A DNA stretch of 64,000 nucleotides from Candidatus Hydrogenedens sp. (lineage in GTDB: Bacteria > Hydrogenedentota > Hydrogenedentia > Hydrogenedentales > Hydrogenedentaceae). The notes beneath the pieces are model-generated. The model saw only the letters and a list, made by a program, of their open reading frames with translations, was not told the origin of the DNA and searched no databases. Positions 4,091-64,000 of the stretch are shown here, piece by piece (the stretch's first letter is position 1; each line of letters begins with the position of its first letter). The position numbers were made by a program, and so were the translations under genes. The DNA is taken from NCBI GenBank assembly GCA_049968235.1, contig JBMFRC010000006.1, positions 107,866 through 171,865 on the forward strand. The letters run 5' to 3'.

Positions 4091-4750
4091 TTATAGTAGA
4101 TTAAAACCTGTTAAACCGAAAGTGAGTAAAAAACCTGCTATATAATGCAAAGGAGGCGAGATAATTCGTGAACCTAATGTTATCGCAATAATAAGTCCAA
4201 AGGGGCCCATTTGTTGTAAGAATCGTTGTCCTTCCGGTGGAAGAAAATAATTTAAGACATGATGTCCATCTAAAGGAGGTAGTGGAATACAATTGAAAAG
4301 TAGTAAAACAAGATTTATCATTACAATGGAAATGGATACTAAACAGGCTGGAGAGGAAAACATTTCATCCGGGGTTGAAATACCATTAATGATAACGGTT
4401 AATCTTAAAACGAAAGTAAATGCTATAGCCAATAATAAATTTGCTGAGGGTCCTGCTATAGCAACAAAAACAGAATGAAGTCTTGGATTTCTTAAATTCC
4501 GAATGTTTACAGGAACAGGTTTTGCCCAACCAAATAGAAATGGGAATTGCGTTATCATCATCATTAACGGCAAAATAAAAGTTCCCAACAGGTCCGCATG
4601 TTTTATGGGATTTAATGTTAATCGTCCCAACATTCGTGCTGTATGGTCACCAAATCGGTCTGCAGCAGCTGCATGTGCCGCTTCATGTGCGGATAAGCAA
4701 AATAGCAAGCATATATATTGTACCAAGATTTGTAAAATATGGTCAGCCAC
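4091..4750 (-). CDS. site-2 protease family (peptidase M50B) zinc metalloprotease, membrane
   Basis: Polytopic membrane protein with HEAAHAAAADRFGD (HExxH in a TM helix) followed by TLNPIKHADLLGT, typical of M50B/SpoIVFB-like proteases. Confidence 0.75.
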   Translation of the reverse strand: MADHILQILVQYICLLFCLSAHEAAHAAAADRFGDHTARMLGRLTLNPIKHADLLGTFILPLMMMITQFPFLFGWAKPVPVNIRNLRNPRLHSVFVAIAGPSANLLLAIAFTFVLRLTVIINGISTPDEMFSSPACLVSISIVMINLVLLLFNCIPLPPLDGHHVLNYFLPPEGQRFLQQMGPFGLIIAITLGSRIISPPLHYIAGFLLTFGLTGFNLL

Positions 4751-55980: not shown

Positions 55981-56952
55981 TTACCCTTTCGTATTTTGGA
56001 AATCCATTAATACTTTCAGGCAATCGTTGTGTTGAGCAATCTCAAAGGCTTTTATGGCATCAACAAAAGCGAATTTATGGCTTATCATATATTCTACTTC
56101 TACTTTCTTTTCCGCTAATGCTTTCAAGGCAGGGGCAAATGGACCGCATCGAGAACCGATAATACTAATTTCATTTACAACCAATTTAGAAAGATTTAGG
56201 GTATTCAGTTTTTCTGTGGTGCTTTTCATAATTAATGTCCCCTGAGGTCGTAATATATCTAAGGCAAAGGATTGGGCAGTAGGATTCCCTGTGGCATCTA
56301 TTACGACATCTATATTCTTATCTTTCCAATAGTCAAATAAACATGTATCAATTCCAAGTATATTTAATAAATACAATTTTGTGGAGTGTTTTCCTACACA
56401 TACCAGCCTTCGGACATAGGGATTTATCACTTGAGAAATAATTTGACCCATTCGACCATCACCCAAAACAACGACAAAATCATCCGGATTAAATTGGACT
56501 TGTTCAAGAATGCGATAACACGCTGCGACAGGCTCTGTAAATACGGCAATTTCATTCGGAATATCATCCGGAACAATGTGTAAATTTTTTTCAGGAAGTG
56601 TGGTATATTCAGCAAAGACTCCATTTCTATTATATATCCCGAGCACAGTTCGGTTCAGACAATGGTTCGACATACCTTGCAGGCAGAATGCACAACGATA
56701 GCATGGACAATTTATCTCTCCAACAGCCCGTTTACCAATCAGATTTTTATTCTCTGCTTCAATAACTTCACCTACAAACTCATGCCCTAAAATCCCCTTA
56801 AAATCCATGTAGCCTTTCACAATCTCCAAATCCGTCTTGCATATCCCTGCCATGCATACTCGAATTAACACTTCTCCCTCTTTCGGAACAGGTATCTCTG
56901 TTTCCTTTATACACAAATTCCGCCCATCAAAGCAAAGTGATTTCATTTTCAT
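55981..56952 (-). CDS. Zn-dependent medium-chain alcohol/polyol dehydrogenase
   Basis: CMAGICKTDLE...GHEFVGEV catalytic-Zn motif. Structural-Zn Cys cluster CPCYRCAFC. Rossmann VLGDGRMG. Confidence 0.8.
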   Translation of the reverse strand: MKMKSLCFDGRNLCIKETEIPVPKEGEVLIRVCMAGICKTDLEIVKGYMDFKGILGHEFVGEVIEAENKNLIGKRAVGEINCPCYRCAFCLQGMSNHCLNRTVLGIYNRNGVFAEYTTLPEKNLHIVPDDIPNEIAVFTEPVAACYRILEQVQFNPDDFVVVLGDGRMGQIISQVINPYVRRLVCVGKHSTKLYLLNILGIDTCLFDYWKDKNIDVVIDATGNPTAQSFALDILRPQGTLIMKSTTEKLNTLNLSKLVVNEISIIGSRCGPFAPALKALAEKKVEVEYMISHKFAFVDAIKAFEIAQHNDCLKVLMDFQNTKG

Positions 56953-57407
56953 AGTATAAGACCTTTGAATAAGTCATACGAGTTAGATGATATAAATTAT
57001 ATACGAGTATGGAGGTGAGGGAAAAAATGAAACGAGAAGAGAAGGAAGTGATTGCTATAAATATAGTAGAAGTATTGCGGGTTGAATAACAAAGCAAGGA
57101 AAAACTGTAAATGGGAAAAGGTCCACGCAATATGGTAAAAAAGATAGAGCAAACAAGTTTCAAAGATTACGAAATGTCCCATCAGAAACCGACCCATCAT
57201 AGATGCTTTTTGAGACAGATGCAAGAGGTGATACCATGGAAGGAACTTTGAGTAGAAGTGTATTTAGAGAAGAGCATACAAAGCGAACCGGGGGATAGCG
57301 GAAACTTCCGTCTTTACTATTTTATGAATTGTTAAACTGTATGCGATGATTTCTCTATATTCTCTTTGCAAGTAATTTGAATAATGGCGATAGCACGACT
57401 TTTTTCT

Positions 57408-57491
57408 CCGTGTTTCTCTGTGTTCTCTGTGGTGATTATATTTCTTTTCATCATGGAGGACTCGGAGAATTACAGAGGACACAGAGAGAGG
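57408..57491. repeat. imperfect inverted repeat (about 16/17 bp arms: TTCTCTGTGTTCTCTG / CAGAGGACACAGAGAGA) separated by about 40 bp
   Basis: Seen by eye inside an ORF-poor 1.1-kb stretch. Confidence 0.35.
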
Positions 57492-58045
57492 AGCATATCA
57501 TTTCTTGTTAATGACAAAATATAAAAGGAAGCCAAAGGAGAGTTCTGCATAGATAACAAAAAGATAGAAAAACGGACAGAAAATAGTAAATAAAATAAAT
57601 CAAAAGAGATACAGACTTTTGTTTTTTAATTTTTTATCGGGATTTTATCTCGTAAAAAACATGTATAATTTATACCATCGACTTATACACGAATTATTCA
57701 GAGGCTCATTTAGCAAATGACATGCGGATAAAAAATAAAAGGGAATCTTAATCTTATTAGTATTAATGTTTCTACAAAATTTTTTCTCTATGTCCAAAAC
57801 ATAAATCTAATTGTGAAGGCAATATCCTGAAGGCTGTTCCATGGTTATGGGTTCTACCATCCGCATATTGTCCGATTCTTATATCTATTAGAATTGTTCC
57901 CTTCCTTAGTAAACAAACAAAATTTTTTAAAGAAAATCCATTTAAAAACCATGCTTCATTAAACCAGAATTCCTCATTAGCCCCCTACCCCGAGAATCTG
58001 CATTAACATATAGTAATTTAGGCATTTTTCTATCAAATGACTTTT

Positions 58046-58477
58046 TTAAAATGTCCTTGTCCCAATATCCAATAATTTCATTTTGTCCGTTACTAAATTT
58101 ATTTTATATCTTTTTATAACAATCTTAAAACCAGGTTTCCCCTTTAACATATTAATTTTTTTAGCAGAAATAGTGCTATGCAATTCTTTTTTGCCAGTTT
58201 TATGGATAGATTTATAACCAAATTTTTTCAATAATGTATCATTTGCTTTAGGAGGTAATGGAGATTTAGTAAATAAAGTAAGCATACTACTCGTATTTTT
58301 TCTTACAGATTTTAATTCAATATTGTGCAAATTGGGACCGGAAATATTATTTTCTTCTATACCTAAAAGGTCTTCTAATGTTTTACCGATGCCTGTACTA
58401 CCTGCTCTGTGGGTTTTAATATAACCCATATCTTTTATTTCTTTTAATCTCTTAAGTAGAGAACTATAACCCTTCAT
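58046..58477 (-). pseudogene. truncated MvaI/BcnI-like type II restriction endonuclease (N-terminal 143 aa only)
   Basis: THRAGSTGIGKTLEDLLGIEENNISGPNLHNIELKS resembles the N-terminal motif of MvaI/BcnI-family enzymes. The ORF is roughly half the expected length. Confidence 0.4.
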
Positions 58478-58548
58478 AATCTCCAGAAATCGAGTATATA
58501 TTCGAAAGTTGTACTTAGTGTTATATAATTACTTGGGAAACCGAATAT

Positions 58549-58779
58549 TCATACTTTCTTTACTAAATTTCTTTTATCCCAAATAATAATATTTCTTAAT
58601 TCGTAACCAATCCCTTCTAATGCTTCTATAATATAGGCATGAGTTGGATACCTATGATTATCTTCCCATAAATCATTAACATTAATAACACAATGAGCTT
58701 TAGGCTTTAACAATGGTGGTATTTTTTTATAAATTTCCGTCAATGATTTAATATATTCTTTCATCTGCATAGTACCCAA
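58549..58779 (-). pseudogene. fragment of an N4/N6 DNA methyltransferase (N6_N4_Mtase family)
   Basis: 76 aa, TTG-initiated fragment. YIIEALEGIGYELRNIIIWDK matches the conserved ..iiW.K segment of N4-C/N6-A methyltransferases. There is no DPPY or SAM-binding part in frame. Confidence 0.4.
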
Positions 58780-58922
58780 ATCTCGAGGATTGTCAGAATA
58801 TTGTTGAATCTTAAATTATGTAGAAATAAACTATTTTATTTAAGTAGTAAAACAATTTCTCTCCTCCCTTTTGAATCTTAAAAGGTAAAATTTTCGCCAC
58901 AATGTAGTAATAGTTTTCCAAC

Positions 58923-59015
58923 TGGCGGAGAGAGTGGGATTCGAACCCACGGTGCCGGGTAAACCGGCACAACGGCTTTCGAGGCCGCCGCCTTCAACCA
59001 CTCGGCCATCTCTCC
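58923..59015 (-). tRNA. tRNA-Ser (anticodon CGA)
   Basis: Reverse complement reads GGAGAGATGGCCGAGTGGTTGAAGGCGGCGGCCTCGAAAGCCGTTGTGCCGGTTTACCCGGCACCGTGGGTTCGAATCCCACTCTCTCCGCCA. Long variable arm, anticodon loop CTCGAAA, T-loop GTTCGAATC, 3' CCA encoded. Confidence 0.9.
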
Positions 59016-59329
59016 GTTGGGATATTATCCCTTTTTTATACTACATTTCAGAGATTTAATTCAAAAACTTTGATTGATTTTATTGGAAACTTTTAAGTAA
59101 TAAAAATTAAATTTTCTATTCATTACCATAGTTTTGTAAGATAAATCAAGCAGGGGGCATTAAGTTCAAAACAGGACAATACTTATTCTTTTATTTTGTT
59201 TCAAAATCAAACACACAAATTATATAATATATAAGTTACTGTTAAATATATATTTACAACATTTACATTGTTTGGCATAATGATTGCTTTATTAAAACCA
59301 GTGAAAACATTAAGATAAGGAGTTTAAAT

Positions 59330-59524
59330 GTGACAATAGAACGGTATTTGCGACTTATTGCAGGGAGTTTTGTGTTACTCAGTGTGGCTCTTGCCTATTT
59401 ACATAGTCCTTACTGGCTATTATTCACTGCTTTTGTTGGGTTAAATCTTTTTCAATCAGGTATTACTAACTGGTGTCCTATGGTTTGGATATTGGAAAAA
59501 TTAGGTGTACCTCATCAAAAATAA
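59330..59524 (+). CDS. DUF2892 (YgaP-C-terminal-like) small inner-membrane protein
   Basis: 64 aa, two TM helices. RYLRLIAG...GLNLFQSGITNWCPM pattern. Confidence 0.55.
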   Translation: MTIERYLRLIAGSFVLLSVALAYLHSPYWLLFTAFVGLNLFQSGITNWCPMVWILEKLGVPHQK

Positions 59525-63606: not shown

Positions 63607-64000
63607 TTTTTATTTTGTGGGAAGTGCCCGCTCTGCTATAATGCCAGTTGACGTTGACTTTGAATTGTTTGTGCTTTGTTTTGAAGGAAGTGCTCGCTCT
63701 GCTATAATTATCTGCATTAGAGTTAAAGCATCAATCATGCTATGTTTTGAGGGAAGTGCTCGCTCTGCTATAATGAGCACAGTAATTAGAACATTAGTCG
63801 GATTGCTATGTTTTGAGGGAAGTGCTCGCTCTGCTATAATTAAAGCTTGCTACAAATGTGTGGAAACATTGCTATGTTTTGAGGGAAGTGCTCGCTCTGC
63901 TATAATATTTTTTCCCGAAAAATAATATCTCTTGAAGCTATGTTTTGAGGGAAGTGCTCGCTCTGCTATAATCTTCGGTATGTGAACGTTCATCTTCATC
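63607..64000. CRISPR. CRISPR array running off the window end: 36-nt repeat GCTATGTTTTGAGGGAAGTGCTCGCTCTGCTATAAT, 30-nt spacers
   Basis: Repeats at 63607 (degenerate 5' half), 63673, 63739, 63805, 63871 and 63937. Spacers at 63643, 63709, 63775, 63841 and 63907 (30 nt each) and 63973 onward (cut off). Repeats 3-6 are identical, repeat 2 has 2 mismatches, repeat 1 is degenerate. Confidence 0.9.

Follow-up and report, generated by a model that had tools for sequence, protein, structure and literature searches.

The 64,000-nt window analysed here (the whole stretch of DNA, in whose coordinates all positions are given unless another locus is named) comes from a metagenome-assembled genome (MAG) of Candidatus Hydrogenedens sp., and downstream of its tRNA-Ser(CGA) gene, in a slot of variable content, it very probably carries the non-functional relic of a Type IIP restriction-modification (R-M) operon of the MvaI kind. 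Judged from the sequence, both genes of the operon are disabled; neither enzyme is expected to be made and neither activity to remain. An earlier note on this DNA had proposed an inactivated R-M cassette beside the tRNA gene, and this is borne out: both genes are homologous to an intact, widespread methyltransferase-nuclease (M-R) operon and both contain disabling lesions. The outcomes named there as speaking against the idea, namely a lack of R-M homologues or matches to unrelated full-length small proteins, did not occur. Where a functional Type II system has an intact M gene and an intact R gene side by side, the window has two disabled ones. The remnant would thus be classed as a homologue of PF15515 and PF01555 and as a functional member of neither family. 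In our reading there is nothing unusual about this decayed R-M system: its family and the kind of place in which it lies are both well known, and the member found here is dead.

Reconstruction of the reading frames, which the earlier note had proposed to make by BLASTX and which was done here by three-frame translation and tblastn, recovered the nuclease gene at full length and the 3' third of the methylase gene. The nuclease is represented by an open reading frame (ORF) at 58046-58477(-), 143 aa long with an ATG start, that matches positions 1-122 of 227 of Pfam MvaI_BcnI (E 7.7e-29, 101.7 bits) and is annotated by NCBI as an MvaI/BcnI-family nuclease. The description of this ORF as an N-terminal MvaI/BcnI fragment was right about the family; the gene is nonetheless more than a fragment, since beyond the stop of the 143-aa ORF the homology runs on in the two other frames. 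Intact homologues as tblastn queries gave three abutting segments (58477-58091, 58082-57981 and 57990-57775), and at the DNA level the gene aligns with two intact genes over 706 nt, colinear save for two single-base gaps. One deletion lies at ~58081-58085, in or beside an A4 run (58081-58084), and the other at ~57981-57986, beside a G5 run (57981-57985). The start ATG overlaps the methylase stop (ATGA), and the gene's own stop is a TAG at 57772-57774. Once both frameshifts are corrected, the 236-aa product matches the whole of PF15515 (positions 1-227 of 227, 173.5 bits against a cut-off of 25 bits) and has 2101 homologues, nearly all of them 235 aa long, of which the best is 74% identical at 100% coverage. 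No closer intact allele was found in either the protein collection or the JGI metagenomes, 74% being the best value in both. A functional PF15515 member has an uninterrupted frame of ~235-250 codons, whereas here the gene is split over three frames. With two -1 frameshifts, only the 143-aa N-terminal product is predicted to be made, and it lacks the recognition-lobe residues that match MvaI Asp207, Arg209, His223, His225 and Arg230. Moreover, at 9 of the 109 columns that are at least 95% conserved among 116 intact homologues, the corrected product deviates from the consensus (intact members do so at 1.6 on average and at 7 at most), an excess that fits relaxed selection.

The methylase gene is in a worse state. 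In what follows, L-numbers denote loci of other genomes, L001 being that of Candidatus Hydrogenedens terephthalaticus and L085 that of Candidatus Hydrogenedens sp. GCA_020216745.1. The ORF at 58549-58779(-), 76 aa with a TTG start, has an N6_N4_Mtase match (E 7e-4, 20 bits) under the gathering score of PF01555 (26.7 bits). It is contained in a remnant of 111 codons that matches positions 24-104 of 221 of the same profile (E 1.7e-4); the fragment scores 20-22 bits, against 105-108 bits for the intact partner methyltransferases. Intact partner M proteins (L081, L085) match the window only at 58812-58480, with 84-85% identity over 111 residues (tblastn, E ~1e-61). The remnant encodes the C-terminal third of an N4/N6 methyltransferase (residues 203-313 of 314) in a single frame; it is broken by an in-frame TGA at 58549-58551, where homologues have Gly, and ends in the ATGA overlap with the nuclease start. 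The earlier note had thus identified the 76-aa fragment and its TTG start correctly and was mistaken in calling it internal, an impression due to the permuted motif order of this family, in which, unlike in the Pfam model, motif I precedes motif IV. In intact M proteins the motif I that binds S-adenosylmethionine (DPFVGIGTT) occupies residues 100-108 and the catalytic motif IV (SPPY) residues 175-178. Residues 1-202 (~200 codons), both motifs included, are deleted at the locus, and SPPY was found in no frame of 58813-58922. With the 5' two thirds, and with them the cofactor-binding and catalytic motifs, gone and a nonsense codon in what is left, the methylase is to be regarded as dead. A controller (C) gene like that of L081 was likewise sought by tblastn, and none was found in the block. 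The junction of the deletion shows one further feature: an exact 12-nt direct repeat, TTGAATCTTAAA, lies across it (58804-58815; homology starts at 58812) and recurs at 58871-58882, 67 nt away. By our estimate about one such repeat would be expected by chance in 2.2 kb, and it is the position at the junction that makes it worth recording.

A second MAG (L095, GCA_049971155.1) contains the exact 143-aa ORF. Its contig of 1987 nt aligns gap-free with window positions 56705-58691. Both frameshifts and the TGA fall within the first 1895 nt of the alignment, where the two sequences differ at a single base. The five neighbouring genes, compared with their L001 orthologues, have lengths of 496/496, 362/362, 323/325, 64/64 and 967/967 aa. 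Given this second MAG and the intact lengths of the neighbours, we consider the frameshifts to be real features of the genome and not an assembly artefact. The last 92 nt of the alignment (L095 1-92, equal to window 58600-58691) contain 20 mostly synonymous differences and resemble another methylase allele (88% to L106), as would be expected if the assembly graph of that sample branches here into a second copy of the cassette.

From its intact homologues, the ancestral locus can be pictured as a co-oriented (C)-M-R unit. Its methyltransferase (~305-314 aa, with motif I before SPPY) would have N4-methylated a cytosine in the target, and sites left unmethylated, in all likelihood CC/WGG, would have been cleaved by its 235-aa nuclease, a monomeric enzyme of the MutH-like type. 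In Type II systems, loss of methylation while an active nuclease persists kills the cell. For this reason the nuclease was probably disabled first, upon which the methylase would have become dispensable and been deleted. In the intact partner methylases motif IV reads SPPY, as it usually does in enzymes that produce N4-methylcytosine (m4C). Since N4-methylation of the inner C also protects MvaI sites (PMC3001055), the two together suggest that the ancestral methylation was m4C, and the pairing with an m4C methylase put forward in the earlier note was reasonable.

R.MvaI (CC/WGG; PDB 2OA9/2OAA) and R.BcnI (CC/SGG; PDB 2ODH) are monomeric MutH-like Type IIP nucleases of PF15515. The corrected product aligns with residues 6-239 of 249 of MvaI (2OA9, E 5e-34) and, more distantly, with residues 9-238 of 238 of BcnI (2ODH, E 1.4e-16); with each of these characterised enzymes it has only part of its sequence in common. 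The MvaI active site consists of Glu36, Asp50, Glu55 and Lys57 (PMC1874612). The counterparts of Glu36, Glu55 and Lys57 are kept, as are those of Arg25, Thr29 and Thr68 and, in the recognition lobe, of Asp207, Arg209, His223, His225 and Arg230 (alignment to the residues of PMC1874612). The corrected product differs from MvaI in having Ser for Asn28, Asn for Asp224 and Asn at the position of the metal-binding Asp50 (GPN at ~58330-58338, APD in MvaI). Asn is also the consensus of the 116 intact homologues at this last position, so that it appears to be a trait of the whole 235-aa subfamily and not a product of decay.

We infer that a CCNGG-type site was the target of both enzymes of the ancestral system. 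Of the two sites named in the earlier note, CCWGG is more likely and CCSGG less so, on account of the closer match to R.MvaI, the retention of the DIRIG segment and the depletion of CCWGG, but not CCSGG, in the window. The DIRIG segment, common to the corrected product and MvaI, contains the counterpart of Arg209, which in MvaI reads the central T:A pair (PMC1874612); BcnI has DLCID instead. Under a maximal-order Markov model of window positions 1-64000, CCWGG occurs 44 times against 92 expected, a ratio of 0.48 that is the lowest of 32 comparable pentamers, and CCSGG has a ratio of 1.02. Besides CCWGG, other short palindromes are strongly avoided in the window (GATC 0.07, CTAG 0.09, GGCC 0.20), with CCGG at ~1.0. 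CTAG is recognised by MjaI, and the tRNA-Ser slot of L002 holds a system of the MjaI type.

Could the nuclease be intact after all, its two frameshifts being sequencing or assembly errors in short homopolymers? Each gap does fall within or beside a short run (A4, G5) and the genome is a MAG, and we still hold this to be highly improbable. The independently assembled L095 contig has the identical gap-free sequence, and the five flanking genes (~6.6 kb in total) stay within two residues of orthologue length. Indel errors do not produce a truncated methylase or a nonsense codon, and a nuclease that was intact while its methylase was missing would be toxic to the cell; conserved nuclease positions also show an excess of substitutions. 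It is scarcely credible that the remnant still works, whether as an R-M system made phase-variable by homopolymer slippage or through a DNA-binding or nicking 143-aa polypeptide. That ORF has an ATG and keeps the E...ELK part of the active site, and the frameshifts sit at short runs. Against this, two independent frameshifts would both have to revert in runs of only 4-5 nt, and with motifs I and IV gone there is no methylase to protect the genome; the truncated product has no recognition lobe (PMC1874612), and substitutions have accumulated at conserved positions. Some observations do weigh against a dead MvaI-kind cassette as we describe it. The accessions of the two MAGs come from similar series, and both may have been sequenced on one platform; a systematic homopolymer error at A4 and G5 is therefore conceivable, although this would not rescue the methylase. 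The C gene and the full methylase are ascribed to this site from homologues and were not observed in the lineage, and the closest intact nuclease is only 74% identical. The Asn at the Asp50 position throughout the subfamily implies that the chemistry of even the intact relatives is not fully MvaI-like. Finally, CCWGG is only modestly depleted, for which there could be many causes, and the figure is based on 64 kb. A dead R-M cassette remains, in our judgement, by far the best account of the locus, whose features are collected in the table together with the states of the slot in relatives and the intact cassettes found 3' of tRNA-Ser genes.

Table. Features of the window around tRNA-Ser(CGA), occupants of the corresponding slot in Hydrogenedens relatives, and intact M-R cassettes 3' of tRNA-Ser genes in other genomes (ADH, alcohol dehydrogenase).
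Feature	Sequence	Coordinates	Strand	Basis or content
tRNA-Ser(CGA), intact	window	58923..59015	-	ARAGORN; Rfam tRNA 62.5 bits
AT-rich stretch of 110 nt, tRNA to methylase breakpoint	window	58813..58922	-	GC 25.5%
Methyltransferase remnant, last 111 codons	window	58480..58812	-	tblastn with intact M of L081, L085
MvaI/BcnI-family nuclease pseudogene, full length, two 1-nt deletions	window	57772..58477	-	tblastn, DNA alignment, Pfam
Non-coding spacer, ~0.8 kb, nuclease stop to ADH gene	window	56953..57771		part of strain-specific block
Zinc ADH gene, first core gene on far side	window	55981..56952	-	homology to relatives resumes
Slot	window	56950-58922		MvaI-type R-M remnant
Slot	L004	9312-9355		empty; tRNA 45 nt from ADH gene
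Slot	L001	8644-9297		GGACT-family gene
Slot	L002	1-2247		MjaI-type nuclease and N6_N4 methylase
Slot	L005	1539-5918		C gene, 219-aa protein (putative nuclease), N6_N4 methylase, DUF6544 gene
Slot	L096-L100 and L102	L096 2504-4589		494-aa AAA_14/DUF4143 ATPase
Intact M-R cassette 3' of tRNA-Ser	L081	3544-5708		
Intact M-R cassette 3' of tRNA-Ser	L088	2735-4708		
Intact M-R cassette 3' of tRNA-Ser	L089	2850-4708		
Intact M-R cassette 3' of tRNA-Ser	L111	894-2667		
Intact M-R cassette 3' of tRNA-Ser	L165	22-1906		
Intact M-R cassette 3' of tRNA-Ser	L168	1935-3708		
Intact M-R cassette 3' of tRNA-Ser	L180	1045-3204		

The cassette remnant is part of a strain-specific block of ~1.96 kb (56950-58907). 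Nucleotide homology to all relatives ends at 58908-58922 and resumes at or below 56949, and as it is thus lost between the tRNA 3' end and the next core gene, the block is lineage-specific. Its absence from every relative and its lower GC (29% for the remnant, 35% for the window) mark it as foreign by all appearances. The right-hand limit is the 3' end of the tRNA-Ser(CGA) gene, the only tRNA gene in the window and 99% identical to that of the relative L005; the RND transporter adjoining it is 90% identical to its counterpart in Ca. H. terephthalaticus. On the left the slot is limited by the ADH gene, where homology to L001, L005 and L096-L102 resumes. Read on the strand of the tRNA, the remnant lies downstream of the gene, 3' and not 5' as the earlier note had it. 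That note had also described the surroundings as free of ORFs, and indeed none longer than 143 aa occurs in 56953-59330, between the ADH gene and a small DUF2892 gene (59330-59524). Within the AT-rich stretch that follows the tRNA, the ~15 nt nearest to it are the native trailer (L096-type relatives align down to 58908), and the stretch of 58813-58922 shows no match to the leaders of intact cassettes.

Comparison with related genomes, as the earlier note had advised, yielded both an empty site (L004) and intact homologous cassettes at other loci. Across the window and its relatives the slot is hypervariable, with six states in Hydrogenedens and all cargo co-oriented with the tRNA. The block combines a presence/absence polymorphism bounded by a tRNA gene with an empty site and atypical GC, as genomic islands do. 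We rejected a further candidate state, L101 (positions 1-183; GCA_049969095.1, JBMFPN010000231.1), as a probable chimeric contig. Starting from the tRNA it matches the window at 98.6% identity, but past the tRNA 3' end it runs on into clearly G+C-rich DNA, which on the opposite strand begins MSYLVLARKWRPQSF and by eye looks like the DnaX N-terminus of another organism; the conserved tRNA-Ser gene is where the two parts were probably joined.

How the cassette reached this slot is less clear than its decay. The earlier note had suggested delivery by an element that integrated at the tRNA, which is plausible inasmuch as the block is bounded by the tRNA 3' end and absent in relatives, and which is met by the lack of an integrase or an attachment-site (att) repeat. 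In this scenario the cassette would be cargo of an integrase-bearing island that inserted at the tRNA-Ser 3' end and later lost its integrase and distal att by deletion, a course of events that we regard as possible and rather unlikely. It is favoured by the exact abutment of the block on the tRNA 3' end and by its GC below that of the host. Elsewhere, homologous intact cassettes immediately follow tRNA-Ser genes, among which four anticodons are represented, and in the congeneric MAG L085 an N-terminal fragment of a tyrosine recombinase stands between tRNA-Ala and the cassette. Integrase homology, however, is present in no frame of the block: six-frame translations of 56940-57960 and 56953-57790 gave no Pfam match to integrases or other domains, and the L085 integrase fragment as tblastn query found nothing significant there. 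By the same method no trace was found in the block of the L096 AAA ATPase or of the 247-aa gene of L081. As to an att scar, a search for the 25-nt tRNA 3' end with up to 3 mismatches found a single copy in the window, no repeat in 56900-59100 involves the tRNA, and the longest match to the tRNA downstream in the window is 8 nt. At this and eight other tRNA-adjacent cassette loci there is no partial tRNA copy downstream and nothing above chance-level matches of 7-9 nt. Islands that integrate at tRNA genes typically have a tRNA-proximal integrase, and the gaps of 128-270 nt between tRNA-Ser and cassette are too small to hold one. Alternatively, the tRNA-to-ADH interval may be a recombination hot spot whose cargo is swapped through homologous recombination of its conserved flanks or arrives by illegitimate insertion, with no dedicated integrase. 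This explanation, to which we give a little less than an even chance, accounts for the six alternative states of the slot no less well than a tRNA-integrating element does, the R-M cassette being one of many successive occupants. The common orientation of all cargo with the tRNA, the missing att repeats and the several contigs of close relatives that break at the slot agree with it; alone, it does not explain why the cassette family recurs next to tRNA-Ser in unrelated genomes.

This recurrence deserves a closer look. Apart from the window, where the distance is 110 nt, there are at least five independent contexts in which an intact cassette lies 128-270 nt downstream of tRNA-Ser and co-oriented with it, and the tRNA genes at these loci have the anticodons CGA, TGA, GCT (in two hosts) and GGA. 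Counted by hand and with loci not formally de-replicated, tRNA-Ser adjacency applies to ~6 of ~45 distinct contexts, window included, which is far above the ~0.2% that we estimate for a random intergenic position, in a sample that is uncontrolled. In L081 and L088/L180 the tRNA is directly followed by a shared leader of ~120 nt that is rich in GC and in hairpins. One might therefore imagine the (C)-M-R family as a small mobile unit that favours sites directly 3' of tRNA-Ser, co-oriented, with neither att duplication nor integrase; we consider this improbable. If it were true, the preference for tRNA-Ser would be a way of targeting not yet described for Type II R-M systems, and an adjacency that reflects targeting would be relevant to the spread of minimal R-M units from genome to genome.

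The spacer between the nuclease stop and the ADH gene has no homology to any relative or to other cassettes and no recognisable coding content. Its ORF of 46 aa at 57111-57251(+) gave weak tblastn matches (plasmids, E 0.5-8), almost all of them N-termini of IS5-family transposases. This ORF has no Pfam or NCBIfam match, and a search of 5.8 billion proteins returned only the ORF itself; it may be the remnant of an insertion sequence, as a faint lead only. The spacer also contains a long, imperfect hairpin of 95 nt (57399-57493; -43 kcal/mol, z -5 against shuffles), otherwise found only in the L095 contig and without an Rfam match above threshold. Rfam detected nothing but the tRNA, both in this region and in the leaders that precede intact cassettes, and a scan for promoters and terminators gave counts at chance level. 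Further away, at 63672-63972 and reaching the end of the window, a tandem array with a 66-nt period (at least 4.6 copies, 72% matches) also occurs in related genomes (L096 9299-10190). Its whole units resemble each other, and it does therefore not look like a CRISPR array.

In itself the relic matters little, being a dead R-M system whose nuclease ORF has already been labelled by NCBI. For annotation, the locus is better recorded as two pseudogenes than as a short nuclease gene and an unannotated gap. In addition, the interval from tRNA-Ser(CGA) to ADH can be marked as a hypervariable slot of Hydrogenedens genomes, which has housed no fewer than three different R-M systems besides other cargo.

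The closest counterparts of the relic are uncharacterised (C)-M-R operons from metagenomes (L081, L085, L088 and L089 among them) that have the gene order, strand and ATGA overlap seen in the window. At the intact loci, which were located through their nuclease matches, M (301-314 aa, PF01555) is followed by R (235 aa) with a 4-nt overlap, and some have a 50-aa HTH_3 controller gene upstream. The L081 cassette is 77% identical to the window across 1037 nt of DNA; the L085-type nuclease P0058 is 68% identical to the R of the window, for which the best relatives reach 74%, and the M fragment is 84-85% identical. In the genome of L085, one of those with the ATPase in the tRNA-Ser slot, the intact MvaI-type cassette stands elsewhere, after tRNA-Ala(CGC) and the recombinase fragment, and as its nuclease is only 68% identical to that of the window, the two acquisitions were separate. 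The window differs from the intact operons in having no C gene and no M residues 1-202, in the nonsense codon of M and in the two frameshifts of R, and the leaders and trailers of intact cassettes are not homologous to its flanks. Fraying is also seen around intact M-R pairs: only the last ~25 codons of the C gene are left in L088 (2823-3060) and L089 (2942-3069), and of the downstream 247-aa gene L088 retains only the first ~35 nt (4709-4750). Compared with N6_N4 methyltransferases (PF01555) at large, the remnant comprises the region from after motif IV to the C-terminus, with IIIWDK and FEYILDF. Decayed or orphaned R-M systems provide a broader parallel, since the window likewise has a disabled nuclease, a truncated methylase, lower GC and strain-specific presence; elsewhere, however, the methylase commonly survives as an orphan, whereas here both genes are dead. 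Lastly, the window differs from tRNA-adjacent variable and defence hot spots in having neither an integrase gene nor an att scar, and resembles them in that its slot holds alternative cargo in relatives, other R-M systems included.

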